Assembly (NCBI GenBank): GCA_036172245.1
Contig: JAYWIR010000127.1
Coordinates: forward strand, 1 to 64,000
Reading direction: 5' to 3'
Origin: Raillietiella orientalis
Lineage: Eukaryota
Length of the DNA: 64,000 nt
Position numbers and translations under genes: made by a program. The stretch's first letter is position 1; each line of letters begins with the position of its first letter. The notes below the pieces were generated by a model that worked only from the letters and a program-made list of their open reading frames with translations, had not been told where the DNA came from and did not search any database. This document shows positions 1,008 to 51,692 of this stretch, in pieces.

Positions 1008-1715
1008 CTGTCACCCGGGTGCGCCGGGACGTTTATTACAAACTATCCGGGAACAGAGTTCCCGGACAAAGAGGAAAACAAGATACGAAGGGGGTGGGAT
1101 CTCCAACACGCATGTCGGTATGCTGAAAGTCCGGAACGGAAGCAAGGGGACTACAAATAAACTACTATAAAAAATAAAAATAAAAATATGGAGGACAGGG
1201 GACAGGGGTCTTTGGTGAGTCCGTTCCTTCCTTTCAAAACCGGCGATGGATGCCGGCGATCTCTCTCCTTACGTCCTGTGGAAGATGGGCCCACTCGGCA
1301 GCCGACCGCATGCTTGCGCTGGCTAATCCGGCGGGCTGACGAACGATGGCCAGCTTTTCCAACTCTCGGTGGGCCTTGTCGATGGCGCGGGTGCAACACA
1401 CAATTGCAACGACAGCACCCAAAGACAGGCCGCCTGGCGTGAAGAAGCGGCGCATCAAGTCCCTCGCGGCGTCCCCCTGGTGCAGGAGAGCTGAGGCCAG
1501 CCTCCGCCAAAGTCCTTAGAGGGCACCGCAGTGCAAAATCAGGTGCAGGAGCGTTTCCACTTCCCCACACCGCTTACAGTTTGGGTAGACAACTCCCCAG
1601 GAAACACGGTTCCTCCGTTGGTTGGAGTGAAAACCCCAATGCACCAGCATGATGACGTCCTGCTTCCACGAAAGGGGGAACATAGAAGTGTTCAAACAGG
1701 AGAAAGGGACCACAA
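1008..1715 (-). mobile_element. 5'-truncated LINE (~0.7 kb) inserted in sense orientation into an RT
   Basis: CKRCGEVETLLHLILHC zinc finger, 3' hairpin at 1012-1037, and flanking TSD GTCTTGAAGCTCT (995-1007) / GTCCTGAAGCTCT (1716-1728). Confidence 0.9.
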
Positions 1716-13240: not shown

Positions 13241-13483
13241 GTTATGGCGACTTCAGCGGACCATGTTTTCCTCGTTGAACACTTGCTCTCCCGTGTAGGT
13301 CAGAGAGGTCCCATGCTGTCCGTGCTTTCAGACCACAACAGGCTCGAGTTCTAGTTGCTCTTGTTAGGCAAGAGGCCCATAAACTGTGTTTGAAGGATGC
13401 CAGCAAACTGGTTATTTTACCCGGAGGCGGCGGAGCATCTTCGCCAGTACCTCCGCGACTTTGCCATAAGTGAGCTTGCTTCT

Positions 13484-15762
13484 CACCCGTTTGCGCCGGG
13501 GCGTTCATACGTGCAAGTAGAACGATATTATCTTGCTGAACTGGTGGTTTAGCAACCCGGCAGTACACAGCAACAAGCCTGCCGGGTCACCGCTTCGCAG
13601 TCCGGTACGGTCAACCACATCAGCAGAGGGGGCTGGGACAAAACAAAAAGATATGAATAAAAATAAAAACTATATGAAAACAAGATCTGTTGGACACGGG
13701 AGTGGATCGCAGTTTGCTGCGGGGCCGTACCATTCTTTCCAGAATGTCTGCAAGGTGTTCTTTGATAAATGAATCCAGATGGGTCCATCCGGTCGCCGTC
13801 CTCATAAATTCGACTTAGCATTGGACGGCAGCCTTCTTGCGTGGTACTCCCGTTGCCTTGCACAAAGCAACCACGATTCCAAGAAAGCAGCACATGACTG
13901 CTAACGATGCCGCTGACCGAAGTCCGTCGCAAACGAAGATAGACCAAATAGCGTCTCTGGGATTGCTACAGAATTTACCTATTCCCGAGGCAATGCGGTT
14001 CCAAAGGGGCCGAAGAGCAACGCAATCCATAAGGAGGAGGAGGAGGGAATTATTTTTTCCCACCTCACACAATTAGGGTTAAACGCTCCCCAAGTCCAAT
14101 GTTGCCGGCGGGCGTTGCAAGGAGGTCCCCAATGCAGCAACAGTAATTCCGATTCCTGCCAATTTAGGGGGAGGGTGGAGGGTTTTATTAGCACCGGGAG
14201 CCAATTTATTTGTTCCGTCGAAACTTTTAAAAGCTCGCCTTAGCGCGAAAGTTTAATAGAGGCTTTAGTCCAAGAAGAAGTATCGCAAAGAATTCCCGTT
14301 TTCCACTCCCTGATCTTTTTCTTCCTACCGGAGATTTTTATGAACACCTTCTATTTCACTGCAGTGTTGCTATCTAAATGTTCCCCAAGAAAAGACAGCA
14401 TTGCGGCGAGGGGAGTTTTTCTCGCCCACGATCGTTTTTGGGGATGCTCCAGGATCTCACGGAGCGTGAGGCGGTCATTGCGAGCAAACAGTTGCCCTCG
14501 ATCTTGTCCGGCGCGGTGCTCGTTGCTTGTCGTCCACGAGTAAACGGTTTCCTGGAGTCAGGCGGTTCCGTTAACGGGGAGACAGGAAAGCCATCATACG
14601 TTCATGCACATCGCATCAGAAACTCTCCGTAGCTGCAACCCGCAGTGACAGACTTGGCGGCGACGACGAAGCCCAAGGAAGGATGACAGTCCCACCTTGC
14701 CTGTAGCCTTTTCGACGAGAAGACGTGCGGGCTCGCACCAGCTACTATTCCAATATTTCGCCACTAGGGCGAGTAGCCGAAACTGGAGCTGGAGCTCCAG
14801 CCGCTCTGGAGTCAGGATGCCGAGACCGCCGTCCCGACGCGGAGCGCTCAAGTCCTCAAGCGAGACTCGGGCCATCCCATTACCCCACAGGGCAATCCTT
14901 AGGAGGTCCTTTGTCCTCTTTTTAGTCTCTGTGGTGAGGGGACAAACAAAAAGCAGGGAACGGAGGAGGGGGGCCGTGAACCCGTTCCACTCCGCGGCCC
15001 GTTCCGGCAGGAAAAACCTGCGGCCTTGGAACGGGCCGATCGCCGTCTCTACCTTTTGAAGGCAGCTGGATCACGCATTTGAAGGGAGATCATCACCCAT
15101 CGGTACACCGAGGTACTTGCAGTACCGCACCGTGGGGATTTTTAAACGGACCCAGTCCGGCTACCCTTTTCACGCCGCACCAACTGGCACCACCGACGAC
15201 TTCGCCCGTTAACCTGTAATTCAGCCTCACGGCTAAGTAGGTCGAAGAAATCAACATTCATCTACGCCTGGGTGTATATAGGTAACAGGAGCAGAAGATC
15301 GTCGGCATAGGTTGCTACGACAAGGGTGTCAGGGCACGAGCTCGGCAAGGGGGCCAAAGTGACCATGTGCAATCTCAGCACCAACTCAAAGTAGGTGCTA
15401 AAGAGCAGCGGACTCAGGCTATTGCCCTGTCGTATGCCCCGCCGTACCTTACGCCGTCCACGGTGTTTCCTAAAAAAGATCTGTATGATCGCGTCGCGCC
15501 AGCAGGATCGCAGGCAGGTCAGCAAAGAGACCGGGAAGCCCAAGCGTTACAAAAGATCCAGCAGGAGCCTCTGGTCAAAACGGTCGAATGCTTTAAGCAA
15601 ATCGACTGCGACTAAGAGGGCTCCTTCCCCTCCTTAACTATCTTGTTTCTTGGCTTGGACATTTCGGTAGTCCGCTTGCCTATCCTGACCCTTTCCTATT
15701 AGAGCGCAGAAAAGGTGCTGGCGAGGAACAGGTTGGCATCCATGCTCCGCCCGGGAACCCAG
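13484..15762 (-). mobile_element. 3' half of LINE (RT to 3' end), decayed
   Basis: RRGIRQGNSLSP, TYADD, APRRDGGLG and WQESELLLLHWG. 3' UTR motif at ~13577-13630 and degenerate terminal hairpin at 13484-13509. Confidence 0.9.
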
Positions 15763-18177: not shown

Positions 18178-18792
18178 TGTTGCCACCCGGGTAAGTCCGG
18201 GGCGTTTATTCAAAAAAGCTCTCTATGATTCGTGGTATAAGGCCCCACTTCTGCCTTAGACACGCCACCTGTCAGGGCACCGGGACGCAGCCCCGCGTGG
18301 CACTCCCCGACAGCGAAAGGGGATGGGGTAAAAAACAAAAAGAAAAATAAAAGAGATAAACAAAGAAAAAAAGTTTGGTGGGCAGGCAATGGATCACCGG
18401 AAGCTGTGAGGAATGCCCATCTGTCGAAGGAAGCCTTCGAGGTCTGTCCGCATATTTCCCAGATGGGGCCATCGAACAGCTCACCGCAAGAAGCGTACTG
18501 CGTGCTGGAGGACTTCCCTCTCGTTCCAATCTTCATCTTCGCTGTTGGCATCGCTCCAAGTCGACACGATGCCTTGAACTCAGCACAGGACTGCAAGGGC
18601 TGTTGTTGGCTGCAGGGCGTCCCGCACGAAGAGTGGCGGAAAAAGTCTCTGGGTGCAGTGCCCGTAGGGATTCCTAGGGTCGTCCCGAACCGTTCCCAAA
18701 GTGGCCGGAGGGCATCTCAATCTAATATAAGGTATGGGAGCGACTTTTGCTCCCCGCACCTGGCACACTGAGGCCTCACACTTTCCCGCGTC
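18178..18792 (-). mobile_element. 3' end of LINE (subfamily B); continues at 29765
   Basis: Terminal hairpin at 18184-18210 and CARCGEQKSL. TSD-like TTTCCCGCGTC (18782-18792) matches TTTCCCCGCGTC (29765-29776). Confidence 0.88.
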
Positions 18793-21223: not shown

Positions 21224-24200
21224 TGTTGCCACCCGGTTACGCCCGGGGCGTTTATTGAAACTCTACAAAAACGTAGTACGAGGCCCCACTAACGGCCGCA
21301 CAACACCGGACCTGCCGGGACACCGGGACGCAGCCCGGCGTGACGCTCCTCGGCAGTAAAGGGGAGTATGGGAGAAAACAAAAAAAAATTAAATAAAGAA
21401 TAACAAAAGGAGTTTGGAGGGAGGGGAAGGGATCACTATCCACTAGGAGGAGGGTCCATCCTTCGCAGGATTCTCTCTAGGTCCTTCTGCGTATGTCCCA
21501 GATGAGGCCATCTCGCAGCTCTTCGCATGCAGCTCGCAGCATACGGGATGACTTCCCTCTCGTTGGCATCCACTCCTTCATCGCAAATGTCGCTCCAGGC
21601 CGCCACGATGCTCCGGATGCAGCAGAGGGCTGCGGCGGGCTGCAGGGCGTCCCGCGAGAAGAGGGGCCTAAGAACATCTCTGGGCGCGCTGCACAGTGGG
21701 AGCCCGAGGGTCGCCCCGAACCGTTCCCACAGGGGTCGGATGGCAGCACAGTCAACTAGAAGGTTAAGAAGCGATTCCCGCTCTCCACACCTGGCACACT
21801 CAGGGCTTACACTTCCTCGCGTCCAGTGGAAGCGGCGCGCATTGCAGGGAAAACCCCAGTGCAACAGCAGCAGTGCCGACTCTTGCCACTTTAGCGGGAG
21901 AAGCCTGGATCCGATTAATACTATGGGCCACTTGAGGTCATCCGTCGGGATACCGAGCAGCTCGCTCCATCTAACAAGTCCACGCTGAAGGGCACTCGAG
22001 GTCGTGACATCTGCCAGTTCACCCATGGTCCTACCGCTCATTTTCTTTTCCCTGCCTGCGATCCGGCAGGAGACGTGCCACTTCGGCGCCAGGCCGCTGG
22101 TTAGAGCACTTCGTAGGAAGGGCAGCGTCGAAGCCAAAGAACTGGTCTCTGCCCACGTGCTCCTGGCGGGACACTTCATAGTGATCCGTAGGTTGCAGCA
22201 GGCGTTGGGGCCGAGTCCCAGGCGGTTCCATTCACGTCCGGTCTGAAGGTTCAGCTTGGCCCACGTCCCAACGGATTCCTCCAGAAAAGCGGAGGAGTTG
22301 GCGGGGCTGCATACCGTCCAGCCGTTCTCTCTCACCAGGGATTCCATGCGCCCAAGGAGAAGGCCGCATCTCCTGACCTTCCGACCGGGACACAGAAAGA
22401 AAGACGCGAGTAGTTGCTTCCTCGACACACGGCTGGTGATGATGCGGGCCGAAACGCACCAGGGGGTGTTCCACGTCTTTGCTGCGATGGCTAGGGTGCG
22501 TCATCACAGCTGTATGTCCATGCGCTCCAATGTCAGGAGGCCGAGACCACCGTCCCGACGCGGAGCGCATATGTCCTTAAGAGGTGCACGAGGCCTCCCA
22601 CTGCCCCAGAGGGCGATGCGGAGAAGATCTTTAGTCCTCTTCTTTAGGTCACGGGGGACAAGGCACACAAAAAGCAGAGGGCGGAGGATGAAGGCCGCCA
22701 ACGCGTTCCACACCGCGGCCCGTTCCGGCAGAAGAAACCTGCCTTCCAGGAACGGGCCGATTGATAACTCTACCTTTTCGAGACGACCTGACCAGGCTTC
22801 TGCGAGGCAGAATACCCTTAACGGGAAACCAAGTACTTCAGGTACCTGACCTTGGGGATCCATATGCAAATCCAGTCATGCCGTCCATCCCACGTCGCAC
22901 TCACCGGTTCCACCGACGACTTCGCCTTGTTAACCTGCAATCCAGTCCCACGGCTTAGCAGATCGAAGAAATCCTCGACTGCGGTTGCCGGGGCGGACAC
23001 GAACAACATCAGCAGAAGATCGTCGGCGTACGCAGCCACTGCGGGCGGGCTGGGGCACGAACAAGGCAAGGAAGCCAAAGTCACCCTGTACGCTCTCAGC
23101 ACCAACTCAAAGTAGGTGCTGAAGAGCAGGGGACTGAGGCGATAGCCTCAGTCCCCTGCAGTATGCCCTGTCGCAACGGCACGCCGTACGTTGTTTGTCC
23201 GCTAAAGTAGACGTTGATTAGAGCATGCCGCCAGTAAGAGCGCAGATAGGAGAGAAGAGAGGGTGGAAGCCCATGAGACCCAAAAGCTCCAACAGTAGCT
23301 CCTGGTCCACGGAGTCCAACGCCTTGTGGAGATCGACTGCAATCGCTAGGGCCCCCTTCCCTGCCCCGGTGTGCGTTCTCATCCCAGCTGGAGGTCCCAA
23401 ATGTGGGGTTGCCAATCCTTGTCGCTGTTTTATGGTGACATTTTTGCATATGGAACCATGTGCTCGCGAAGAACAGGTTGGCATGCATACTTCGAACGGG
23501 AACAGCGTATGTCGGCTCCGGGCTAATTATGGAGTCTGCTACCTGTCCAAGACGCGAAGCCCACAGTCCAGCAGTCAGCTTGGCGTCCGTGTTCACAATC
23601 GTGACCGGACGCCAATTGTTCAATGTTCTCAGGTCTCCTACCTTAGGGAGTAACCTCACTCTGGCTAACGGAAACGAGGCGGGAACATCACCTTCGTCTC
23701 GGATCAGCCTGGTCAACTGAAGCACCAGGGGTGCCAACTCTGTCGCGAATCACTGGAGAAACTCCGAGGGCAGGCCGTCCTCCCCTAATGCTTTCCTCCT
23801 TTTGAGCCTTTTAATACCGGCGAGAATTTCGCCAGTGGTAAAAGGCTCGTGGAGGCTAATCGTCTCTTCCTCCCCTATTGCCGGAGTTCAGTCAGGAAGC
23901 AGGAGCCGCGAGGCATCACGCTCTGAGGGTGCCTTGACGTAGAGGGAGAAGTAGAATCGTCGCACGAGGTGCCTGATCGCGGGTGGGGCCGAGCGTTCCT
24001 GGCCCTCGTCGTCCAGCAAGCTGGCCGACCCGGATTGCCAGGCTTGGGGCTCGGCCCCGGCTCGGAATTCTGCTAGGCGACGGACGTTGGGGTTCTCTCG
24101 TTCCGGCGCTCCTGTGAATAAGCCGTATGGTTGGGAGCTTCTTCCCCTAATCCGGGGGGCAGGCGGTGCAACGGAAACTCCTCGCAGAACTCGAGAACCG

Positions 24201-26856: not shown

Positions 26857-29764
26857 CCTTAACGAAAGGGCGTATTTGCACGCCCGTCGTTTCTCGAGGA
26901 CCCCTAACATCCGTCGCTTGGAGGAATACAAACCCGGGGCCGAGCGTCAAGCCTGGCAATCCGGGCCGCCCAGCGTGCTGGACGACCTGCACCAGAAATA
27001 CTCGGACCCGGCATCGATACGTCACCTCGTGCGTGGATTTTACTCCTTCTTTTACGCCAGGGTACCTGCGGAGTGGGACGTCTCGCGACGCTTGCTCCCA
27101 GATGGAGCCCCGGCCACAGGGGAGGAGGAGAAAGAAAGCCTCGACGAGCCCTTTACGACCGGTGAAATCATCCCCGCTATTAAAAGGCTCAAGAAGCGTA
27201 AGGCTCCAGGGGAGGACGGCCTGCCGGCGGAGTTCATTCAGAGCTTCGCGGCAGAGCTGACCCCCTTGGTGCTCCAATTGACACGGCTTATCCGAAACGA
27301 AGGCAGTGTTCCCGCCTCGTTTTGGTCAGCCAGGGTGAGGCTCCTTCCTAAGGGAGGAGACCTCAGAAAATTATGCAACTGGCGTCCGATCACGATTGTG
27401 AACACGGACTCCAAGCCGCTGGCTGGACTGTGAGCTGCGCGACTGGGGCAGGTAGCTGACAGCTTCGTCAGCCCGGAACAGACGTACGCTGTTCCCGGGC
27501 GAAGCATGGAAGCGAACCTATTCTTCGCCAGCACATGGTTCCATGTGCAACGCGAGAAAAATTTGGAAAAAGAACGGAATGTCGACAATCCTGATTTGGA
27601 AGCGCCAGCGCAGCAAGTAAGGGACGACCGGGAAGGGAAGGGGGCTTTAGCGATCGCAGTCGATCTGCACAAATCGTTCGATTGCGTGGACCAGGAACTC
27701 CTTCTGGAGCTCTTGGATTGCATTGGCTTCCCGGACACCTTAACGGTCTACCTGCGCTCCTGCTGGCGCAATGCTAACATCAACTTGTTTTTCAGATGCC
27801 AGCACGGGTTCGGCGTGCCGGTGAGGCGCGGCATCCGGCAGGGCGACAGCCTGAGTCCCCTGCTCTTTAGCACCTATTTCGAACTCGTGATGAGAGCATA
27901 CAGGGTGACATTGGCTGCCCTGCCAAGCTCGTGTCCAGGTACGCCGGCCGTATCGCCTCACGCCGATGATCTTCTGCTCCTTTTGCTAATGTCCGCCCCG
28001 GCAGCCGCAGTCATGGATTTCTTCGATCTGCTAAGCCGCGGGACTGGACTACGGGTAAATAAGGCGAAGTCATCGGTGATAGCGGTTGGTGCGAATTGGG
28101 TCGGACGGCCTGACTGGATCCGCTTGGGGATCCCCACAGAGAGGTACTTGAAGAACCTCGGCGTTCCGTTGGAGGACTTCTGCCAGTCAGAAGCCTGGTC
28201 AGGTCGTCTCCAAAAAGTGGAGTCAGCGATCGGCCCGTTCCTGGAAGGCAAGCTTTACTTGCCGGAACGGGCCGCGGTGTGGAACGCGTTTGCGGCCCCC
28301 CTCCTTCGCCCTCTGCTTTTTGTTTGCCCCGTACCCCGTGAACTGGAAAAAAGAACAAAGGACTTCCTACGCATTGTTGTGTGGGGAGGCGGGAGGCCTC
28401 ATGTGCCTTTAAAGGATTTGTGCGCTCCACGTCGGGAAGGAATTCTTATCGTCCTGACGATGGAGCGAATGGAAAACACAGCTGCGGACGCGCACTCTAG
28501 CCATCGCAGCAAAAATGTGGAACACCCCTTGGTGCGTTCCAGCCCGCCTTCTCGCCAGACGTCTGTCCGGGACTGTAGGACTCGCGTTTTTTCTTCTGTG
28601 CCCCGGCCGGAAAAAAAGATGCGGACTTCTCCTGGGACGCATGGCCACCCTGGCAAAAAGGAACGGGTGGATGGCCTGCAGCCCTGCCAACTCCAGCGTA
28701 TGGCTGAAAGAAACAGTTGGAACGTGGGCAAAGTTGAAACACATCACTGGAGAATCCTGCAACCGCCTGCGCACCGGCATTTACACCCGCTGTACGCTGC
28801 GAAACATGATCATTTGTCCCACCAGAAGCACTTGGGCGGAGACGACCCCACTGGCCACGGCGCTGCCCTTCCTACGAAGGGCGCTTCGAAACAGACGAAA
28901 GCCGAGATGGCAAGTCTCCTGCCGGATAGCGGGCAAAGAGAAGGATCTAAGCGGGTGGACAATGAGGGAACTGGCAGACGCCGCAACCCCAAGCGTTCAC
29001 CCGCATTGAATACGGAGATGGGGCAAGCTGCTTGGCATCCCGGCGGATGACCTAGAGTGGCCCTCGTTATTTACAGACGCATCCACCCTCCTCTTCAAGT
29101 GGCAGGAAACGGGGCTGTTGTTGTTGCACTGAGGTCTTTCCTGCAACGAGCGCCGCCACCACTGGACGTTGGGGAACGTGGGGCAGAACTGTGCAGTGTG
29201 CGGGGAGAAGGAATCCCTCCCCCATCTGTTAGTGGACTGCGGTGCCCTCCGGCCCTTGTTGAAACGTTATGCTACGACCCTCCCTATGCCGGTCGGCAGT
29301 ACCCCCAGAGACGCTGTGAGACTCCTCTTCGTGCGAGACGCCCTGTCACCAGCCTCAACCCTGGCAGCGCTCTGCTGCCTCCGAGGGATTGTGGCCGCCT
29401 GGAGCGAAGCCAACAGAGGAAGCAGCAACCGGGACTTCATCGTACACGCGGGTCGCTACCTGCGAATCGCGATCGGATGGTTCCATCTGGTAGCTATGAC
29501 GAGGGACCTCGAGGGCATCCTGGAAAGAATGGTCCTCTTCTACAGCGGGCTGTGATCCCTTCCCGGCCCTCCAAATAGTTTCTTTTTGTTATTTCATTTA
29601 TTTTTCTTTTTGTTTTACCCCCTATCCCCTCCGTTGCCGAGGAGGACAAGCTGGCCTCAGAACCGGCTTCCTGGCAGGTCCGATGAAATATTGGCCGTAG
29701 CGGGGCCCAGTACCGCAAATGTAAAGTGTTTTTTAATAAACACCATGGCGTGACCGGGTGAAAA
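26857..29764 (+). mobile_element. LINE 3' half (linker, RT, zinc finger, 3' end); continuation of 18793-21223
   Basis: Resumes at NERAYLHARR, then DLHKSFD, GIRQGDSLSP, HADD and CAVCGEKESLPHL. Terminal motif at 29735-29760. Confidence 0.92.
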
Positions 29765-32247
29765 TTTCCCCGCGTCTAGTGGAAGCAGTGCGCGTTGCAG
29801 GGTAGACCTAAGTACAACAGCAGAAGCGCCGTCTCTTGCCAATTTAGAGGAACAAGTCTGGATCCGATGAATACTGGGGGCCACTTCAGGTCATCAGTCG
29901 GAATGCCGAGGAGCTCATTCCATTTCAAAAGTCCGCGCGGGAAAGCACTAGGGGTCGTGGCGTCTGCCAGCTCTCCCATGGTCCAACCGATCATCTTTTT
30001 TTCGTTTCCTGCGATTTGGCAAGAGACTTGCCACTCTGGCAACAGGCCACTTGTTAAATCCCTCCGTAGAAAGGGCAGCGTTGAAGCTAAAGGGGTGATC
30101 TCAGCCCACGTGCTCCTTGCGGGACACTTCAGAGTGCTCCGTCGGGTGCAGCCGGCGTTGGGGCCGAATCGCAAGCGGTTCCAATTTTCGGTTCCTGGGT
30201 TGTTCAGCTAGGCCCACCTCGCAACGGATTCCTCCTGCCGAGCGGAGGAGTTGGCGGGGCTGCATATTGTCCAGCTGTTTTCCTTCACCAGGGCTTCGAT
30301 GCGTCCAAGGAGAAGGCCGCATCTCCTGACTCTCCGGCAGGGGCACAGAAGGAAAGACGCGAGTCCTTGCGTGCTGGATACACGACTGGCGAGGATGCGC
30401 GTCGGAGCGCACCAGGGGGTGTTCCACGTCTTTGCTGCGATGGCGAAGGTGCGCCATTGCAGCTGTCTGTCCAAACGCTCCAACGTCAGGAAGCCAATTC
30501 CTCCGTCACGACGCGGAGCGCATATGTCCTTAAGAGGTGCACGAGACCTCCCACTGCCCCAGAAGGCGGCCTTTAGTCCTCTTCTTTAGGTCACGGGGGA
30601 CAAGGCACAGAAAAAGCAGAGGGCGGAGGATGAAGGCCGCCAACGCGTTCCACACCGCGGCCCGTTCCGGCAGAAGGAACTTGCCTTCCAGGAACGGGCC
30701 GATTGATAACTCTACCTTTTCGAGACGACCTGAGCAGGCTTCTGCGAGGCAGAATACCCCCAACGGGACACCCAGGTACTTCAGGTACCTGACCTTGGGG
30801 ATCCATATGCGGATCCAGTCAGGCCGTCCATCCCACGTCGCACCCACCGGTTCCACCGGCGACTTCGCCTTGTTTAACTGCAGTCCAGTCCCACGGCTTA
30901 GCATGTCGAAGAAATCCTTGACTGTGGCTGCAGGAGCGGGCATGGGCAACATCAGCAGAAGATCGTCGGCGTACGCAGCCACTGCGGCTGCATGCCAGCG
31001 CAAGAGCTCGGTATGGGGGACAAAGTCACCCTGTACGCTCTCAGCACCAACTCAAAGTAGGTGCTAAAGAGAAGAGGACTGAGGCTATCACCCTAATGTA
31101 TGCCTTGCCGCACCGGCATGTTGTGCACCTGTTGACACGAAAAAATGATGTTTACAATAGCGTTGCGCCAGCAGGAGCGCATGTGGGAAATCAGGGAGGG
31201 TTGGAAGCCTATGCGAACCAGGAGCTCTAACAGTAGCTTCTGGTCCACGCTGTCGAACGCCTTATGCAGATCGACCGCGATCGCTTGGGCGCCCTTTCCA
31301 GCCTTGGTATCGGTTCTTAGCCCCGCTGGCGGCAACAAAGTAAGCCTGCCAATCTTGCTCCCTGATTCGTTTGGGTAGCGTCGCACATGGAACCATGTGC
31401 TCGCGAAAAACAGGTTGGCAACCATACTTCGCCCGGGAACAGAGTATGTCTGCTCCGGGCTAATTATGGAGTCTGCCACCTATCCTAGACGCGAAGGCCA
31501 CAGTCTAGCAATTAGCTTGGTGTCCGTGTTAACAATTGTGACCAGACGCTAATTGCTCAGTGATCTCAGGTCTCCTCCCTTTGGAAGCAGCCTCAATTGG
31601 GCTGACCGAAACGAAGCGGGAACGTCACCTTCGTCTCGGATCAGCCTGTTCAACTGAAGCACCAGTGGTGCCAACTCTGTCGCGAAGCATCGGAAAAACT
31701 CCGCGGGCAGGCAGTCCTCCCCTGGTGATTTCCTTTTTTTGAGCCTTTTAATACCGGCGAGAATTTCACCGGTAGACAAAGGCTCGTGGAGGCTAATCGT
31801 CTCTTCCTCCCCTATTGCCGGAGTTCAGTCAGGAAGCAGGAGCCGCGAGGCATCACGCTCTGAGGGTGCCCTGACGTAGAGGGAGTAGTAGAATCGTCGC
31901 ACGAGGTGCCTGATCGCGGGTGGGGCCGAGCGTTCCTGGCCCTCGTCGTCCAGCAAGCTGGCCGACCCGGATTGCCAGGCTTCACGCTCGGCCCCGGCTC
32001 AATATTCGGCCTGGCGACGGACATTGGGGGTCCTCTCTTACCATCAGGCCTGTAAATAGGCCGTATGGTTGCGAGTCCCCTTCCCAAAATGGGGGGGCAG
32101 GCGGTGCAAGGGGAACTCCTCGCAGAACTCGCGGACCGAGGCCTTAAAAGGTCCCTGTCAGCGATATTCCGGAAAGTGACACCTCTCAGGAATTAGCGAA
32201 GGTGTTCTGTCGGCCCTGAAAATCGCGTCCAGTCACCAGGCAGCCGC
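29765..32247 (-). mobile_element. LINE ORF2 central part; continuation of 18178-18792
   Basis: WQETALLLL, AYADD, KYLGV, DLHKAFDSVDQ and KSPGED. Confidence 0.9.
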
Positions 32248-34205
32248 ATTCCTGTTCAGGTACGCCGACAGTGGCAGCCTATGCCGACGACCTGCTTCTT
32301 CGGTTGCCCATGTTCATCCCGGCGGCTTCGCTTGAAGATTTCTTTCAGTTGATCCGTCGCGGTGCGGGCGTGAGCGTCAACAGGAGCAAGTGCATGATTG
32401 TTTCGGTTGGAGCGACGTAGGAGGGGCAGTCCTACTGGATCCGCCTGAGAAACCCCACGGGCAGGTACCTAAGGTAAATTGAAGTGCTTTTGGGCGACTT
32501 CGGCATCTCAGAAGCGTGGTCGGACTGCCTTCGGAAAGCAGAGCGTGCACTTGGCGCGTTCTCAGGAGGCGAGTTCGTCTTGCCGGAACGGGTTAGCATC
32601 CGGAAGAACTTCGTTGCCTTTCTCCTCCGCCCCCTGGTTTTTGTTTGTCCACCTACCCAGGAAGTCAAAGTCTTGGCGCAGCGCCTTCTGCGCAAAACGT
32701 TGTGGGGCGCTGCACGATCCCGCGTAAGACTTAAACACTTGGTGGCGCCGCGTCAGGATGCACGCTTGGGCATCCTAGACTTAAAACCCATCGAGCTGCA
32801 GGTGCAGTTTCGAATGATGCGGCTCTTTTCCAAGCTGTGGTGTACGCCGTGGTGCTTACCCGCACGAATTATTCTAAGGCGCTGCACAAGAAGCGAGAAA
32901 CTGCTTTCGTTGCTGCCTTACATTCGGCACACCAGAATAAGGTTTGGCCTCCCGCTGAGGCAGCTGTCCTCACTGCTGGAAGCCCAATTTTGGAACTTCT
33001 GCCGCCCCATGAACATAAATGCATGACGGCAGAAATCTTTTTCTTCGTGGGCAGCATTCGAATTAACGGCCCTGAAGTTCTTCGACGCCTGCGACTTCTC
33101 CTCGGTCATCAAATGGACGAAGTCATGCAGGACAAAAAGATGTCGGATCGTTTGGCCTCCACACTACTCGCCGCAGCGCTGTGTGCCCTCAGGGCAAGCG
33201 ACGACAGTTGCCTACCGGCAAAATGGGAGTTCTCCTGCTCAAAAGCGGGAGTCTGTAAGCTCCTTGGCTGCTGGACTACAAAGGAGCTGTGGAAACTGCC
33301 ACTCTTCGTAATCGGGCGAAGGGCCTGCTTCGGTGGAGTGAACATTTAATTGTACCCCCCGAAGAGATAGTGGTTCCCCCCGTTTGTTTGGACAGCTCCG
33401 TGTTCCCTTTAAAGTGGAAACAAGATGTTCTGCTCTTTTTACATTGTGCATTACACTGTAATAGGCAGCGAAGCATCGTTTTCGGGGGAGCTGCTTTGCC
33501 AAACTGTTTAAGGTGCGGAGAGATCGAGTCTTTTCCGCACCTCTTGCTGGACTGCGGTGACCTTCGTGAACTGTAACGAAGGCTGATTTCAGCCAAGATG
33601 TTGCAGGGAGGCACTGCCATTGATGTGCTGCGGCGCTTCTTCAGGAGGAATGGATTTTCGGTAGGCGCGAATGTCGCAACCATGTGTTGCATTCGCGCCA
33701 TCGTGAAGGCCCGCTACGCCCTGGAGGTGTCAGCGCAGCAAAGGGAGTTTCACAGGTTTGCAGCAGAATTGATGCAACAGGCTGTTAGGTAACTTTATCT
33801 TCGTGACAAGGTCAAAAAGGACATCGACGGCATCCATCGCCGGTTTACGGACTTCTAGGAACGGCTTAATCCGGTGATCACTTCGTCCTGAAGCTTACCC
33901 ATACCCCTTCTCCGCTCGCTCTGCTAAACTGCAGGTGCGATTACTTTTATCCAAGTGCGAACCATAGCGATCCCAAAGTCCCTTGTCCCGGCGTCCACCA
34001 TTGATTTCTTTTTTTTTTGTTTTTGTTTGTTTGTTTTCTTAGTTCCCACATACCATTCTGTGTTATTCTGTCCTGCGTGCCAACAATATTCTCTTGATAC
34101 TTGTGCCGAGGTCGGTTGGGAGGCATGGTCCCCAACTGGTTTATTTTATATAATTGTGTCTGTTGAATTTTTATGAAATAAACGCCCCGGCGTGACCGGG
34201 TGAGA
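32248..34205 (+). mobile_element. LINE 3' part (from RT YADD to 3' end)
   Basis: Starts at TPTVAAYADD and includes CLRCGEIESFPHL. Ends AATAAACGCCCCGGCGTGACCGGGTG at 34177-34202. Confidence 0.9.
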
Positions 34206-36316
34206 AATCTGGGCGTTCTCCGCAATGATCACGTGGATCTCCTGCAGGAGCGCCAGGTCGAAGTCACGCAGGGTGGCGGCCGTGTCCCGTCTGTTGCCGT
34301 CGTCGCGTAGCCCGTTCACGTTCCAACAGGCCACGCGTAATCGACAGCGACAGGCGAGACCAGGTGTTATTCCTGGGAAAGTGGCAATGGGGTTCCCGTC
34401 ACCTGGTCGGTCGGGACGGATGGAGGAATGGGGTCACAGCTCACCGGTTCTCCCTACTCAATGGGGGCTGAATCCTCGGCGGACTGCTACGGTTGAAGGG
34501 GCAGGTTTCACACACGTGCTCCCCCTCTCCCATGGGGGTCGATTCGTTGGCTGCTCTGGACGGCAGGGGGGAGCGGTGTTGAACACTCTGCTCTTCCTAC
34601 TCCATGGTTTTCTCCTCAGCAGGTCCCACCGTTGGAAGGGGGCGGCAATGACTTACCTTCTCCCTCTCCTCCATAGGGGTGGCCAGCTGCTCGGTAGCGG
34701 AGGGTGGGAAAATCCCTCTCTCCGTTCCTATGCTACCGGCTTCCCCCTCGGCTGCCGGTGCATTACCCTCCTTCTTTGTCGGGATGCGCCTTTTCGGATT
34801 CTTGGACTTCCGTCCAGTATTCTTCGTAAGCGCCTCCGCGGAGGAGAACTCACTTCCGGCATCCGGGTCGTGGTCACCTGTCAGAGGTGCCCTGGTCGCC
34901 GCCGGCCTTCGCAAGGCCTTTCGCGCTTCGTTCTCACGGTCCGCGAGTTCAGCCGCGAGCTCTTCCGCCGCGTGTTGGAAGGCGGCGTCTTCGATTGCGG
35001 GGAGCGCGTCGCTCGTCTCCCCCTCTCTTTGTGCAGAGGGTTCGCCTTCCGCGGTCGCAACTTCGTCGTCAACGAGAAGGGTAATATCTCCCTCGGTGGC
35101 GGTTTCGGAGACATCCACACGCTCAAAAGCGACCGAACATTCGCGGAGTAAAGCGCGGCGTTATCTCCTATTGAATTGAGATGTCGCGGGTTTCGCTGTC
35201 GGGCCTTCGGTTTTCTTGATCTTTTTGCTATTCGGCTTCGCCTTATGCCAGCCCTCGCTGTCTCCAGAGTCGTCGGGAGTATCGTCGATTGGAGCTTGCT
35301 GTACGGGTTCTGGAACTGGCAGTGGGTTCCGCTTCTCGGGTCCCTCCTTAGGCTTTTCCGTTCGCCCCGCGTGTTTCCCTTTGGCTTTTTTCAAGGCAGG
35401 GAGAGCCGGGGTTTCGCGTTTAGGACACACCTTCCGCAGGTGGCCCTTTCCGCCGCAATGGAAGCACTGGATGTGGGGGCATCCTTTTTTAAGGTGCCCT
35501 GGGGCATCGCAGTGTCAACAGTACTTGGACTTTCCCACCTAGAAGATGTCGACGACTTCGTTGCTGACATCTAGTTTGTGAGGTAGCCCAGCGTTTTCGT
35601 TGACGGTCACACGCGCTGCAGCCATGCCACCGAAGAGTCTTCCGTAACTTTGGAAGATGTTCGGCTTGGTCCATACCGCGTGTAACGTACCGAATTTACT
35701 TAATTCCTCCTTCACTCCGCTTTTTGACATGCGGAGGGACACTGCAGTAAGATGCGCTACCACAGAGCGATCCTTGGTAATCGGAAAGACCCTTCTGCCT
35801 TCCAGCATAAGGGGAGTATTCAGCAGGCGCTGAGCCAAGCTTGCAGCTTTGCAAGTTAGCTTCACCCGCTGACCCCCCTGAGCACTGAAAGACATTCCAG
35901 GTCCTCCTCTTTTACATCTACCCGCTGCAACTTCCTCTCGAAGTTGCGGGCAGTTTTCCCCAAAGACAAATTTCTTACTTTCTAAATCAAGGACGGCTCT
36001 TAACCTTCTTTAATGTAGGCGCGCTTTTCTGCTGCATATGCAGGAGATGGCTCTCCAGGACTTCGTCGTTGCCGAAGAAGGTTCTAAGGAGGCGGTCTCT
36101 TCCTTTTTCAAGAAGGCGGTTGCCCTCTCCTCCGTGGGGGCAGTTGCCCTCACCTTAATGTGTTGTGGAGAGGAACAATCCTCTCCCCCGCCGACTTCCA
36201 TCGCGGTGTCTTAAAGAATTTCGGCCATTGGACACCGCCGATGCAACAGACAAAAACACTAACGAAAACAAACGCTTAACAACAGGCGCAAAGGAGCGCG
36301 GAAAAAACACGTCCGC
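34206..36316 (-). mobile_element. LINE 5' part (5' end, ORF1, start of APE)
   Basis: 5' motif at 36301-36314, DRSVVAHLT, CCHC remnants and ACWNVNG..LQEIH. Confidence 0.9.
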
Positions 36317-38655
36317 ACGCAAAGGGGCTAGCCAAGATGTGGGCAGAGCGTCTGGGACGGGTTGCCAACATCTTCATCAACCCGGAACAGACATATGCTG
36401 TTCCCGGGCGGAGCATGGAGGCGAACCTGTTCCACGCTTTCACCTGGCTAGAGCTCCAACATGAAAGGAGCTTGGAGCGCAGCCGGAATTCCGGTGCGTG
36501 CTCCGGCAAGGGGTTGGATGGTCGGGTGGGGGAGGGAGCCCTTGCGGTCGCTGTCGACTTGCGTAAAGCATTCGACAGCGTCGACCAGAATCTCCTGCTG
36601 GAGCTTCTGGAACGCTTGGGCTTCCCGGCCTCTTTGTTGGCCTACCTGCGCTCCAGCTGGCGCGACGCGCTCATTAATGTTCTTTTCAGCGGGCAAACCG
36701 TGCACGGAGTACCGGTGCGACGCGGCATACGGCAGAAAGACAGCCTGAGCCCCCTGCTCTTTAGCGCCTTTTTCGAATTGGTGCTGAGAGCGTACAGGGA
36801 GTCTGGCGCACCTGCCGTGCGATTGCCCCGGTACGCCTGCGGTTTCGGCTTACGCGCACGATCTTCTGCTGCTGCTGCCTATGTCCACCCCGGCCTCGGC
36901 GGTCGAGGACTTCTTCGACCTGCTGAGTCGTGGAACAGGACTGACGGTGAACAGGGCGAAGTCGTCCGTAATGCCAGTCGGAGCGGCGTGGGCAGGGCAG
37001 CAGGACTGGGTCCGTTTGGGGATCCCCAGGGTGAGGTACTTCAAGTACCTTGGTGTGCCGTTGGGGGATTACTCCCCTGCGGAAGCGTTGTCCGGCTGCC
37101 TTCAGAAGGCTCAGGCGGCGATCGGCCCGTTGCAGGACCGCAGGTTCTTCCTGCATGAACGGGCCGCGGCGTGGAACGCGCTCGCTGCTCCTCTCCTCCA
37201 CCCACTGCTTTTTGTTGGCCCCCTTTCAGCGAAGATCAAGAAAAGGACGAAGGACCTTCTTAGGATCGCCGTGTGGAACAGAGGGAAGCCCCGTGTCCGT
37301 CTCGCGGACTTGTGCGCTCTGCGTGGCGACGGCGGACTTGGCCTCTTGACGCTGAAGCGGCTGGTGGTTCAGCTCCAGTTCCAGAGTATTGCCTTCATGG
37401 CGAAGAATTGATGCACCGCCTAATGCATCCCTGCACGTCTCGTGGTCGAGCAAGACACCGGCAATGGGGGACTGTCGTCCTACTTTGTACTTCGCATCCC
37501 CATCTGCAACTGCGGACTTCAGCTTCGGAGGGAGGCCAAGCTCGTGAAGACCAACTCGGCGCGGATGCTGGTACGCCCCGCGAACTGTTCTGCCTGCAGG
37601 CAGGAAACCGTCCGCACTTAAGCGATGACTCAGGAGCAGAGCCCGCAATACGAGCGAACAGCTCTGTTTGGGATGCACGCCCGCCTCACTCTCCGAGAAA
37701 TCATCGAGGATCCCCGTAGGAGAGCGTGGGCACAAAGAACCTCCCTTGCTGCGCAACTGCATACTCTAAGGGAACATCTAGGCAGCCACACCGCGGCGGA
37801 ATGGGAGGTTACTTTCAAGATCGCTGACCGGGTACAGAAGATCGGGTATTGGAGAAAAGGCCAGCTGACCAACGCTGCGACACCGAGGACCACCCCACAC
37901 GGACTCCTGCGCTGAGGCGTGCTACTTGATTTTCCGAAGGAACATCTTGAGTGGCCCCCGGTGCTCATGGGCTCGCACAGCTTTCTATGAAGTGACAACA
38001 GTCAGCACTCCTGATGTTGTATTGAGGCCTCCTCCGCAGCGCCCGCCGAAACCACTGGACGCGGGAGGGTGTCAACCCCTATTGTGTCAGGTGCGGGGAG
38101 AGGGAATACCTCCCTCACCTGTTAGTGGATTGTGTTCCTCTTCGTCGCTTGTGGGAACGCTTTGCCGCGGCCCTTGGTATCCCCGGAGGTAACCCCAGAG
38201 ACGCTTTGCGTCCCCTCTTCGTTCGTGACGCCCTGCCTCCGGCGGCCTCGCTTGCCGCTCTGTGTTACCTACGCGGGATCGTCGTGGCATGCAGCAAAAC
38301 GATGGGAGGATCCAGCGACATGGATTCCACCGTGTACGCGGCTCGCTTCCTAAGGATTGCTACGCGTAGCCCCATCTGAAATCCACCATTCAGAAACAGC
38401 TTGCCGGCATCCTCCAGAGAATGTCGGTCCCTCGCAGCAGACAGTGATCCTTTCCCGCTCCCTCCCCAGTTTTGAATATTGCTTTGTTTTTTATTTGTTT
38501 CGTTCTCCCTCCCCTCTGCTGCCGAGTTTGACCGCGCCAATCTCAGCACCGGTAGCTCAACAGGCTAAAAGATTCTAGGGAGTGGCTCGACTACTGGTCC
38601 AGTCCCATTTTCTAGATGTTTGTTCGAAAGAATAAACTTCACGGCGAACCGGGTT
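36317..38655 (+). mobile_element. LINE 3' half (RT to 3' end), subfamily A-like
   Basis: AKMWAERLG, DLRKAFDSVDQ, RRGIRQ and FKYLGV. Degenerate terminal hairpin at 38631-38654. Confidence 0.9.
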
Positions 38656-41036
38656 CCAATTGAGATTCCGGAAAATGACGCCTCTAAGGAATTGGCAAAG
38701 GTGTTCTTTAGCACCGGAGAGCAGCGTCCAGTCTCCAGGCAGCCGCCACGCCCTGGAAGGGGGTCCTTTGTCGCGCAGGCATACCTTTACGATTAACCGG
38801 GAATGGTCCGACAGCGTCGACGCAACTCTCCCCCGTTTGCCGACCCCTGAGCACAGGTCTGCATCCAGGAAGACGTGGTCTTTGCTGCGGTCCATTCCCT
38901 CCACGTCCGCCAACAAGTTGCACGTGCGCATTGGAGCGCACAACTCGTTTGCCGTGCGTTCATCCGCTTCGGGCTCAGCTGACAGCAGACGGAGATTAAA
39001 GTCCCCAGCTTTCAGGTGTGCCTTCCGCACGTTCGTATCGGCCAGCCAGTCGCGCTTCACGGTTCTCAGCAACCTAATACAGTCACTGTATCCCTTTTTT
39101 CCTTTGGGGGTGTACACATTCGTGACGATCAGAACGATAGAATCAGACAAGCTGAGAATCATCTGACCGACCCGACCGTCGTCATGGAAGCGCATTTTCT
39201 TCACGGCAGCGTCGATAGCCGGCTCTACGAAGAACGCCACTCCGCAGGTGTTGCGGGCACCGCATCGCTTATACATCTGATCCCCGCGATCGACTTGATC
39301 TCCTCGACGTCTGCCGCGGAGATCACGAGGATCTCTTGCAGCAGGGCGAGGTCGAGCTCAGGCAGGGTGTCGTCTGTATCTCGCCTGTTACCGTCGCCGC
39401 GCAGTTTGTTGACATTCCGACAGGCCGCGCGAATCCGACGGCGACTTCCTAGCCCAGGTGTTACTCCTGGGAAAGTGACAGTGCGGCGTCTGCTACCTGC
39501 TGGGGCGGGACGCAAGGTGGAGGAAGAGGGTCAGGTGCTGAAGACAACTGGTTCCCCTCCACCGTGGGTAACTGCGCGTCGAGCGGGTCACCCACAGGTG
39601 GGGTCGCGCTTACCTGGTCGCCCTCCTCCATGGGGGCGGGCTGTTCAGGTTCGGCTACGGCAGGGAGAACTTCGCGCCCTGCTCACGCTCCTCCTTGGGG
39701 GTGGCCGGCTCGACGGCTTCCGGGCGTGGGAGTACCCCCTCCGCAATTCCCACGTCGTTGACGGCTTCCGTCTTCTCCTCCTCGCTGGGGAAGGGGAGGC
39801 GCCTCCTGGGCTTCTGAAACTTGCGTCTTGGCTTCCTGGTGGGTGCCTCCAAGAAGGAAGATGCACTTCCACCCCCTTGGGCGCACTCTCTTTCGGAGAC
39901 CTTCTTCGGCGGACCCGGCATCTGCATGGGCTTGCGTGAGGGGTTCTCACGCTCCACCAGCGTGGCCGTGAGCTTCTCCGCCGCCTTCGTGAAGAAGGCG
40001 TCCTCGCCGGCGGCGAGCGTGTCGCGCGTCTCACCCTATCAGTAAACAGACGGTCCGCAGTCGCGAACCTCGGGCTCGACGGAAACGGCGATGGAAGGCT
40101 CGTCGCCCCGGGTGGCAGCCTCAGGAACGCTGACGCGCTCCAGTGCCACCGCGCACTCGCGGAGGGTTTTTGAGAGCGGCCCGGGCTTTTTCGCCTTCCC
40201 GGCCGTCTTCTTTTCCGCATTTCTCCCCTTTTGTTCTTTAGGCCCCTTTTTGAGGCTCTTTCCTGGGCTTAACCAGTTGCCATCTTTCCTCCACTTCTGC
40301 TCTTTTGGGAGTGTTTTCCTCCGACGCCTGTGCGGCAGGGAGGGAGGCTGGCGGCTGGGAGCAGCCAATTTCAGATTTGGGCCTTCCGGTCAGCTTTCCT
40401 CGTTTTCCCTGGGCCTTTTTGGCAGCAAAGGGCACCGGGATGGGGCGCTTAGGGCACACGCGGCGAACGTGTATCTTCTATTCGCATAGTCGGCATACAA
40501 TATTTGGGCACCGCTTGCGCAAGTGCCTTACTACATTGCAGTAGCCACAGTAACGGGGTTTTTTAACCGACCAGAGGTCCACCGGTTCTTAGCAGACCTC
40601 CGGTTTGTGAGTTAGCGCACCAATATTTTTCTCGGTGACACGCGCTGCGTCCTGGCCTCCCAAAAGTGTATAATAGCCGTTAAAAATGGTATGCTTCGGA
40701 ACGTGCAGTCTTTCCATCTAACAGGTTGCCTTCCTTGTGGACAAATGAAGGCTTTTACCCGCCGGCCCTGTATGCAGCATTTTATGCCATGGTTTCCGCC
40801 CTAGACGCGGGCACCATGGTGCTCCTACTTCTCGCAATAGGCGACGAGGGTGATTCTTGGGCGGATGCCCCTAATTCTGTATGCCGTGAGAACGAACTAG
40901 CCTACCCTACGCCTACCGCCTTCGTGGTGTCCTCTGGCCGAGATGCCTTCGGACACCAACGATGTGAAAGACACACACTTCACAAACGAATCTGCTTTCC
41001 GGGACTCGTCGAAGGAGCACCGGAAAAACACGTCCT
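38656..41036 (-). mobile_element. LINE 5' half (5' end, internally deleted ORF1, APE), subfamily B
   Basis: 5' motif at 41022-41035, LQEI, TNVYTP, AGDFN, DHVF and TLSDH. Confidence 0.9.
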
Positions 41037-41854
41037 TCCGTAACGAAAGGGCGTACTTGTATGCCCGTCGTTACGCAAGCACCCTCAGTGTGCGTCGCCT
41101 TGCAGAGTAACGAGCCAAGGTAGATCGCCAAGCCGGGCAATCCGGATCGGCCAGCTTGCTGGACGACCAGGGCCGGGAGCACTCGGCTCCGGCTAGAATA
41201 CGGCACCTCGTGCGGCGTTATTATTCCTCCCTTTACGCCAGGGCGCCCCCGTACCAAGATGCTTCTTGGCGCTTGCTTCCGGATGGTGCCGCGGCAATAG
41301 GGGAGGAGGAGTCGTTAAGCCTCGATGAGCCTTTTACCACCGGCGAAATTCTCGCCGGTATCAAAAGGCTCAAGAGGCGGAAAGCTCCAGGGGAAGACGG
41401 CTTGCCCTCGGAGTTCTATCAGAGCTTCGCGGAAGAGCTGGCACCCCTGCTGCCTCAGCTGAAAAGGCTGATTTGAGACGAAGGCGATGTTCCCGCCTCG
41501 TTTCGGTCAGCCAGAGTGAGGCTCCTTCCGAAAGGGGCAGACCTTAGGAATTTGAAAAACTGGCGTCCGATCACGATTGTGAATACGGACGCCAAGCTGA
41601 TCGCTACTGTGGCCTTCGCGTCTGGGGCAGGTAACCAATTCTATGAATAGCCCGGAGCAGACTTACGCTGTTCCCAGGCGAAGTATGGTGGACAACCTGT
41701 TCTTCACGAGCACATGGTTTCATGTGCAGAGTAGTAATGAGAAAGAGGGAATGATTGGCAGCCCCACTTCGGAAGCATCAGTCGGGCAGGCATGGGACAC
41801 CCAGGTAGGGAAGGGGGCCCTAGCGATCGAGGTCGATCTGCATTAAGCGTTCGA
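41037..41854 (+). pseudogene. LINE ORF2 fragment (linker to RT 'DLH-AFD'); continues at 53048
   Basis: RNERAYL, KAPGEDGLP, EQTYAVP and ALAIEVDLH*AFD. Confidence 0.9.
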
Positions 41855-43530
41855 TTTTCACCCGGATTTCGCCAGGGCATTTATTGTAAAATAAACTTTT
41901 ACAAAGATGTGCGGTGGCTAAACCATTGCTCCAGCCACGCACGAAGAAACACAGAGCCTGCCGGGTCACCGGTTCGCAGACCGGTACGGTCCACCACGGC
42001 AGCAGGGGGGAGCGGTAAAAACAAAAAACAGAACAAAAAAGAAAAGAAAAGTTGGGAGGGTAAGGGAAGGGATCACAGTTGCAGGTGGGGCCGTTCCATC
42101 CTTTGCAGGATGCCGGCAAGCTCCTTCTGTATACCTGGATCCAGGTGGGGCCATCGGGACGCCCTCTTCAGGAACTAGGAGGCTGGCTGGATGGCATCCT
42201 GGTCGCGTTGTCCTCCCGTAGCCTTGCTCCAAGCGGTGACGATCCCGCGTAGGCAGCACAAAGCTGCTAACGAGGCCGCTAGCCGAAGGGCGTCGGCAAC
42301 GAAGAGGGCTTTCAGTGCGTCCCTGGGGTTGCCGCAGGGGATTCCAATGGCCGCGGCGAAGCGAAACCGAAGGGGCCGAAGGGCAACACAATCCACTAGC
42401 AGGTAAGGGAGGGACTTCCGTTCCCCACACCTGACGCAATTGTGGTCCACCGCTCCCCAGGTCCAATGGTGTCGGCGGACGTTGCAGGGGAGTCCCCAGT
42501 GCTGCAGCAGGAGAGCCGACTCCTGCCATTTTAAGGACAGGGCGGAAGTGTTCATGAGCACCGGGGGCCACTTCAGATGTTCAATGGGAACATCGAGCAG
42601 CGCGCCCCAGCGCAGAAGTCCATTGGGAGGCGTACTCGGGGTCGCAGCGTTTGTTAACTGGCCCGTCCTCCACTCTCCTATCTTCTTCTCCTTTCCGGAG
42701 ATTGTTACTGTAACCACCCACTTCGATGCAGCATCGCTGTCCAGATCTTCCATCAGGGAGGGCAGCGCAGCAGCGAGGGGGGTTCTTCCTGCCCACGCTC
42801 TCTAATTTGGATCCTCCAGTATCTCGAGGAGCGTGCAACTTCTGTAACCCCCAAACAGGAACCTTCGTTCCTGTTGGGAGCGTTGCATGCCGAACTGTCC
42901 CCACGTTGGAACGGTTTCCTGCAACCAGGCACTACCGTTCAACGGAAGACAGGTGAGCAATCCTGGGTTTTTTTGATACACCGCAGCCACCCTCCGTAGC
43001 TGGAGTCCGCATCGGTTGACGCGGCGACGGAGTGCAAGAAACGACGTCAGTCCCGTCTTGCCGGAGGCTTGCTGGAGTAGGAGACGTGCAGGGACGCACC
43101 AACAGGTGCACCACAACTCTGGAACGAGTGCCGACAAGCAAAACTGGAGCTGAAGCTCCAGCCGCTCCAGCGTCAGGAGGCTCAGACCACCATCCCTGCG
43201 AGGAGCGCACAAGTCCTTTAGGCGGACTCGGGCCCTCCCGTTGCCCCAAAGGGCGATACGGAGGAGGTCCTTCGTCCGCTTTTTGATCCTCTCTGTGATG
43301 GTACAAACAAAAAGCAGGGAGCGGAGGAGAGGAGCCGCGAACGTGTTGCAAACCGCGGCCCGTGCAGGCAGGAAAAACCTTCCGCCTCGAAACGGGCCGA
43401 TAGCCGTCTCTACTTTTTGGAGGCAGCCGGACCACGCTTCCCCAGGGGAGTAGTCCCCCAACGGCACACCAAGGTACTTGAAGTACCTTTCCGTGGGGAT
43501 CCTCAAACGGACCCAGTCCTGCTGTCCTGC

Positions 43531-51690: not shown

Positions 51691-51692
51691 TG

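Follow-up and report, generated by a model that had tools for sequence, protein, structure and literature searches.

Most clades of long interspersed nuclear elements (LINEs) choose their own RNA as template through structured 3′ tails, and L1-clade elements, which recognize poly(A), are the textbook exception. Here, we analyzed a 64,000-nt stretch of DNA (the window: contig JAYWIR010000127.1, positions 1 to 64,000, of the Raillietiella orientalis assembly GCA_036172245.1), in which copies of an L1-like LINE share a putatively structured module in the 3′ untranslated region (UTR). According to PMC4176376, stringent LINEs require a cognate 3′ stem-loop that is bound by the region of the open reading frame 2 (ORF2) protein (ORF2p) between its endonuclease and reverse transcriptase (RT) domains and is essential for retrotransposition. 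Within the L1 clade, the monocot element LINE1-1_ZM has a conserved 3′ end with a hairpin showing compensatory changes, and the Chlamydomonas element L1-1_CR has a 3′ end common to a short interspersed nuclear element (SINE); both were read as stringent recognition (Ohshima, 2012; PMC3472496), and an (A)n end is lacking in 13 of the 15 L1 families of green algae in the same study (PMC3472496, Table 1). The L1-type LINEs Zepp and ZeppL of green algae form nested, self-targeting centromeric clusters, as outlined in PMC8226300 and PMC3446292.

We consider it rather likely, from comparison of the copies in the window, that the module is a cis-acting, poly(A)-independent 3′ tail of the stringent type, which the ORF2p of the element would recognize to start target-primed reverse transcription (TPRT). 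Two marks of such tails were observed: a conserved 3′ stem-loop with compensatory change (stem-loop 1, SL1) and a defined end without poly(A), the latter in 12 of 12 copies. The interval 21270-21360, flagged in an earlier note on this DNA, falls in the 3′ UTR of copy c21, which spans 26855 to 21226, has its sense strand on the minus strand of the window and aligned over 5688 nt at 76.8% identity (BLAST) to the reference copy. The reference, which was BLASTed against the window, was the most complete copy, c46 (minus strand, ~53048 to 46035). The interval can be assigned to a LINE 3′ UTR because it lies directly downstream of the ORF2 stop; the conserved stop, together with RVT_1 and Exo_endo_phos upstream (Pfam), bears out the earlier proposal that this is the 3′ UTR of a retrotransposon lacking long terminal repeats (non-LTR). 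The stop TGA is kept in its GTGATCC context in 7 of 9 copies (alignment). Since the sense strand of c21 is the minus strand, the U-rich tract that precedes the stem-loops appears on the plus strand as an A-rich run (21375-21409). The flagged interval belongs to a conserved, probably folded tail, but it omits the block at 21226-21256, which is the most conserved.

The nine copies listed in the earlier note are all true homologous 3′ UTRs (BLAST, MAFFT). When the window was searched, with filters off, using a covariance model built from nine copies, the nine starting copies were recovered at 93-143 bits, and three diverged copies (c34, c55b and c1) were found in addition. In the shared layout, the ORF2 stop is followed by a U-rich tract of ~35-50 nt set between two C-rich stretches, then by SL1, a second hairpin (HP2), a linker rich in U and A, the hexamer AAUAAA and a terminal hairpin (CCCGG-N6-CCGGG), up to the element end, without poly(A) (Table 1). 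The U-rich tract was found in 12 of 12 copies, its sequence varying and its composition being kept. In c55b, SL1 is built from other letters, with outer stem UCGGGA/UCCCGA, inner stem GCCGGU/ACCGGC and loop CCAGGC. In metagenomes, a scan with an alignment of the ORF2 C-terminus gave 525 pattern matches, none of which was confirmed by tblastn, and a scan with a degenerate pattern of AAUAAA plus terminal hairpin gave no matches.

All 12 copies end at ...GGGUGNNAA (...GGGUG(G/A)(C/A)AA), with at most four A's before foreign sequence. The same terminal position, again with no A-tail, was found even in c18, which is 5′-cut to ~610 nt. Because every copy ends at the same position without poly(A), these results suggest that a defined nucleotide in the tail is where reverse transcription begins. 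At the end of c55, UGGCAAC occurs twice (55131-55144) before the flank, while the other 11 copies have a single unit; nothing else in the copies hints at a tandem repeat at the terminus or at template slippage at initiation.

RNAalifold, applied to the nine full tails, predicted a consensus that includes SL1 and the terminal hairpin. The halves of the SL1 outer stem, CTGCCG (21312-21317) and CGGCAG (21351-21356), are present in c21 as the earlier note had described them, homologous outer stems lie near 18267-18315, 41956-42004 and 423-471, and the inner hairpin is likewise present, with the form CCGG(K)-CUGCG(W)-(M)CCGG. Standard pairs made up 88.2% of the 144 SL1 pair cells in the nine copies, and only 25.7-48.6% of cells were paired when the 3′ partners were slid by 1-3 columns. 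Furthermore, 5 of 16 pairs (12 cells) had changed on both sides with pairing kept, and the observed percentage paired, double-change count or covariation score was reached by 1 of 500 column shuffles. In the alignment of 12 copies, which was fitted to the covariance model and hence leans toward structure, 88.6% of cells were paired versus 30.8-47.9% after sliding, 6 of 21 pairs were double-changed and none of 500 shuffles attained the observed values. The pattern is thus stronger than chance would give, and the pair counts support the claim that the stems are conserved across diverged copies and keep pairing through two-sided changes.

The SL1 changes were mapped on a tree made from the last 600 nt of ORF2 and therefore independent of the UTR. 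A double change from AU to UA fell on the subfamily B branch, and a stepwise series GC, GU, AU was seen within subfamily B. A further pair, UA versus GC, divides c46, c18 and c21 from the remaining copies; CG changed to UA in c18 and to AU in c29. The double changes of SL1 therefore fall on separate branches of the ORF2 tree. Copies with the shortest terminal branches (c42, 0.025; c46, 0.083; c21, 0.17) had 0 of 16 SL1 pairs broken, and the older copies c38, c13, c0 and c18 had 2-5 pairs broken; such tracking of broken pairs with age is expected if lineages were under selection while active and copies decayed neutrally once inserted. In addition, SL1 cells included 18 G.U versus 9 A.C/C.A combinations, an excess that weakly favors sense-strand RNA.

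HP2, which the earlier note had reported as a second hairpin of the form GYGG-N9-CCRC, is present at 21273-21289 and in its counterparts. In the five copies of subfamily A, 20 of 20 HP2 cells were paired, one pair being UA in three copies and CG in two. The other copies have a longer hairpin at this position, with stem sequences that are unrelated between subfamilies (GUGGCUGGA/UCCAGCCAC; UUGCUAAAC/GUUCAGCAA; GUUGGG/CCCAAC; GGGAAA/UUUCCC; CCGGGAAC/GUUCCCGG). AAUAAA was found in 11 of 12 copies (AUGAAC in c13) at a constant 23-25 nt from the element end. About 90% of the cells of the terminal hairpin were paired, and because its sole changes in the nine-copy alignment are from C to U, giving G.U pairs, this hairpin is compatible with a selected structure but not demonstrated. 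Identity between subfamilies was 65% for AAUAAA plus the terminal hairpin and 61% for SL1, compared with 53% for the last 76 nt of ORF2, 41% for HP2 and 35% for the linker; as judged by these identities, AAUAAA with the terminal hairpin (21226-21256 in c21) is the most conserved block of the tail. A third hairpin, formed by AAUAAA with an upstream U-run, was considered and set aside as inconsistent, its mean pairing probability ranging from 0.22 to 0.99 among the 12 copies.

We propose that the ORF2 protein of the element would recognize the folded tail, through SL1 and/or the terminal hairpin, and that, as happens in LINEs of the stringent type, TPRT would begin at the tail's final nucleotides. 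Placed 23-25 nt from the element end, AAUAAA probably determines the 3′ end of the RNA, and the unstructured U-rich tract would serve as a spacer, keeping the folding module away from the terminating ribosome. Several observations weigh against recognition of such a tail. AAUAAA normally predicts a poly(A) tail, and the copies have none. The covariance-model search of the window revealed no SINE sharing the tail and no short non-autonomous copy; each of its 12 hits lies behind a LINE ORF2 end. Recognizable SL1 is missing from two of the diverged copies, c34 and c1, and the CUGCG loop, which had been called conserved, is not invariant (CUCAG in 2 of 9 copies, CCAGGC in c55b). The terminal hairpin shows no double change in the nine-copy alignment. 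Covariation was measured on 9-12 related copies from a single window, the independent events are few (~5) since most double changes separate subfamilies, and column shuffles are a control known to be exceeded by related sequences without structure. Finally, minimum free energy (MFE) z-scores of the whole tail are ordinary, from -4.7 to +0.6, with 9 of 12 above -2; such thermodynamic scores are uninformative for the whole tail.

The conserved pairing could in principle have no bearing on RNA, the stems being inherited GC-rich palindromes or serving at the DNA level, for instance as an inverted repeat bound by a protein. Ordinary MFE z-scores for GC-rich sequence, the small and phylogenetically structured sample and the finding that sense and antisense strands fold about equally well are all consistent with this explanation. 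We nevertheless judge it rather improbable, given that two-sided changes keep pairing in 5 of 16 pairs (6 of 21 in the 12-copy alignment), that the slid controls drop to 26-49% paired, that the least decayed copies have no broken pairs and that HP2 is maintained with unrelated sequences. If the structure is selected, it might act in 3′-end formation or RNA stability instead of template recognition, with AAUAAA and the downstream hairpin defining the cleavage site and the stem-loops and U-rich tract binding host factors for stability or export. This alternative, which is unlikely though not negligible, agrees with the presence of AAUAAA in 11 of 12 copies at the canonical 23-25 nt spacing and with AAUAAA plus the terminal hairpin being the most conserved block. 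However, it leaves unexplained the fixed start of reverse transcription and the lack of a copied A-tail, and the pairing of AAUAAA with upstream U-runs (0.22-0.99) is inconsistent. The two roles are compatible and not exclusive; template recognition is favored over RNA stability alone because of the fixed poly(A)-less end and the conservation of SL1 and the terminal block.

The earlier note had offered ORF2p binding, RNA stability and self-cleavage as functions, of which ORF2p binding would fit best. That the module belongs to an undescribed class of self-cleaving ribozyme, which would trim the transcript and so create a 3′ end without poly(A), is extremely unlikely in our view. A precise 3′ end without poly(A), a compact nested helix and some invariant unpaired nucleotides (AGG after the SL1 stem) would suit a ribozyme; however, the loop and internal loop differ between copies, and SL1 lies ~85 nt away from the element end. 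An Rfam scan of the window gave no family at gathering score. At E values up to 10 there were 12 weak Rfam hits, none to a ribozyme family and none in SL1, HP2 or the terminal hairpin; one chance-level hit, Clostridiales-2 (20.3 bits, E 3.5), overlapped the U-rich tract of c46 on the opposite strand. A pseudoknot between GGGCC and GGUCC, which had been suggested, is unsupported because its only variant (GGUGG in c18) breaks 2 of 5 pairs; it shows no covariation, overlaps both stems and is missing from subfamily B.

Other known RNA classes were also considered and rejected. Known self-cleaving ribozymes (hammerhead, HDV-like, twister, pistol, hatchet and others) gave no Rfam hits at gathering score, and ARAGORN, run for a tRNA-like tail, found no genes. 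ENE-type triple-helix stabilizers have a stem with a U-rich internal loop, by which poly(A) or an A-rich tract farther downstream is clamped. The U-rich tract here is a single run of 35-50 nt upstream of SL1 with no helix halves flanking it, there was no Rfam hit to such an element, and the copies have no A-tail.

By its sequence, the parent element appears to belong to the L1 clade, with an apurinic-type endonuclease, an RT nearest to L1 ORF2p and a C-terminal Cys/His motif, an assignment made from Pfam, PDB and nearest-protein matches. The best match of the RT among PDB chains was human L1 ORF2p (E 4.5e-42), with R2 proteins at ~1e-12, and the closest named proteins were ORF2s of the L1 type from flowering plants and a streptophyte alga (27-30% identity). 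The motif C-x2-C-x7-H-x4-C is kept in 3 of 3 aligned ORF2 C-termini, and a look-alike search of the RT returned generic RVT_1 clusters only. A 3′ poly(A) tail, a typical but non-universal L1 trait, was found in none of the 12 copies.

The module resembles the tails of UnaL2 (eel) and of ZfL2-1 and ZfL2-2 (zebrafish) of the L2 clade, which have a stem-loop late in the 3′ UTR, poly(A)-less copies and a defined start. The short terminal duplication seen here in one copy (c55) might be a further likeness. Unlike those elements, however, the present family has an L1-like RT rather than an L2 one, a larger module of two to three hairpins over ~130 nt preceded by a U-rich tract, and an AAUAAA, and no regular terminal microsatellite or SINE partner was seen in the window. 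Like LINE1-1_ZM and L1-1_CR, compared here by description, it is an L1-clade element with a conserved 3′ end; those two elements end in poly(A), whereas the copies here do not, and the published L1-clade hairpin is single and within ~45-50 nt, whereas the present module has several hairpins. The GC-rich, nested and mostly 5′-truncated L1-like copies inserted in each other recall the Zepp/ZeppL clusters as outlined in PMC8226300 and PMC3446292, and the nested insertion of those clusters is matched here, all 12 3′ ends abutting family copies. Unlike the copies in the window, Zepp and L1-1_CR have an (A)n end according to the listing in PMC3472496 (Table 1). A structured 3′ UTR that is needed for RT binding and for a precise TPRT start is also reported for the site-specific non-LTR element R2 (Bombyx and others; PMC11194090); R2 belongs to another clade and has a restriction-like endonuclease, and the RT here matched R2 at E ~1e-12 versus 1e-42 for L1. 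The module has no sequence similarity to any Rfam family. In the literature on LINE 3′ stem-loops and green-algal non-LTR hairpins, covered incompletely and with Repbase entries excluded, we found no description of it. For elements of this kind a structured tail is nothing unusual, and it opens no new kind of mechanism. In an L1-like family, a tail with several hairpins and no poly(A) would add a case for ancestral stringent recognition in the L1 clade of the green lineage (PMC3472496). As a compact RNA of ~130 nt, the module is suited to studies of ORF2p binding, and it is useful as an annotation marker of element ends in a nested, truncated cluster.

All 12 element 3′ ends adjoin other copies of the same family, nine in antisense and three in sense orientation (Table 1); this antisense bias was not significant (two-sided binomial p about 0.15). 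Past 21226, for example, c21 is followed by another copy in antisense orientation, which is entered at reference-copy position ~4435. Two reference-copy positions were each hit twice: c18 and c21 both lie at ~4435, and c42 and c0 both lie at 5263. In the latter pair the inserted sides are 86% identical and the target sides 68%, which argues for independent insertions at the same site. The corresponding values for c18 and c21 are 74% versus 69%, and their shared site may come from segmental duplication instead of two insertions. On the basis of the two sites hit twice among 12 insertions, and of the pair with 86% inserted versus 68% target identity, the same pairing of ORF2p and tail that would fix the start of reverse transcription might also help to choose insertion sites within the ORF2 of the family itself, making this a self-homing LINE whose module and target choice co-evolve; we regard this extension as distinctly unlikely. 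No common target motif was evident at the 11 mapped insertion sites, and tail subfamilies showed no strict association with insertion sites. At the junctions 26830-26850 and 41005-41032, the sequence across the junction is near-identical, and at both an antisense copy, whose homology ends near reference position 1716-1790, meets a sense copy that resumes near 4436. It therefore seems that block duplication of composite units has also taken place within the cluster.

Table 1. Parts of the c21 tail, positions of the module (SL1 to element end) in other copies, and element 3′ junctions. Positions are those of the window.
Feature	Position	Strand	Details
ORF2 C-terminal part, c21	21436..22500	-	Stop-to-stop frame, 354 aa, ending in TAG 21436-21438 (ORF list)
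Conserved TGA of the family, c21	21433-21435	-	In frame after the TAG
C-rich stretch, then U-rich tract, c21	21375..21432	-	C-rich ~21412-21432, U-rich 21375-21409; G-rich/A-rich on plus strand
SL1, two-tier stem-loop, c21	21312..21356	-	RNAalifold consensus and pair counts
SL1 outer stem, c21	21347-21356 paired with 21312-21320	-	9 bp, one bulge
SL1 inner hairpin, c21	21321-21340	-	7 bp; loop CUGCGU at 21328-21333
HP2, c21	21273..21289	-	GUGG-GGCCUCGUA-CUAC; pair counts, subfamily A
AAUAAA hexamer, c21	21251..21256	-	23-25 nt upstream of element end
Terminal hairpin and 3′ end, c21	21226..21247	-	CCCGG-GCGUAA-CCGGG (21232-21247), then ...UGGCAA; last base 21226, no poly(A)
c46 module	46035..46191	-	142.5 bits; most complete copy
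c18 module	18179..18329	-	131 bits; 5′-truncated copy, ~610 nt
c29 module	29618..29765	+	123.9 bits
c55 module	54991..55137	+	119.4 bits; UGGCAAC duplicated at end
c42 module	41854..42018	-	138 bits; subfamily B
c13 module	13479..13639	-	96 bits; subfamily B
c0 module	409..573	+	133.7 bits; subfamily B
c38 module	38503..38660	+	93.4 bits; subfamily B
c34 module, diverged	34045..34207	+	32.9 bits; U-rich tract, differing hairpin 2, AAUAAA, terminal hairpin; SL1 unaligned
c55b module, diverged	55404..55576	-	31 bits
c1 module, diverged	1007..1101	-	24.4 bits; single 8-bp hairpin (CCGGGAAC/GUUCCCGG), AAUAAA, terminal hairpin
3′ junctions	21226, 18180, 41855, 572, 29764, 55136, 38659, 34206, 13481, 46036, 55405, 1008		

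On the plus strand of c21, 21412-21432 and 21357-21374 contain G-runs (GGAGGGAGGGGAAGGG), which are complementary to the C-rich stretches on either side of the U-rich tract. In first-strand cDNA the A-rich run would therefore be flanked on both sides by tracts that could possibly form G-quadruplexes.

Diverged copies of a single LINE with an endonuclease and a reverse transcriptase, nested in a cluster, make up the window from 1 to ~57.5 kb. BLAST with c46 returned dozens of diverged pieces at 65-89% identity, in both orientations and nested in each other; BLAST together with junction mapping showed that the copies are mostly 5′-truncated and that the cluster exceeds 55 kb. GC content is 0.51-0.62 in the block from 1 to ~57.5 kb and 0.43-0.49 past 58 kb, so that the cluster boundary near 57.5 kb coincides with the fall in GC. 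A Pfam scan of 14 long frames found RVT_1 in two and Exo_endo_phos in two.

In c46, the conserved TGA of the ORF2 stop (46255-46257) reads AGA, and the frame therefore continues through the U-rich tract to 46069. The ORF2 of this copy is broken over at least three frames (48697-49899, 47087-48907 and 46069-47730), and thus no copy in the window looks intact. The upstream frame of c46 (50606-53128, minus strand, 840 aa), presumed to be ORF1, had no Pfam match at E 0.001 and holds internal repeats of ~94 nt (reference-copy positions 1012-1105 and 2374-2467). A GC-rich tandem repeat with a period of 27/48 and 3-4 copies lies inside the cluster at 12378-12544. No clear host gene was seen at 57.5-64 kb; a short frame at 57630-57890 has two CCHC zinc knuckles and resembles the gag of another retroelement.

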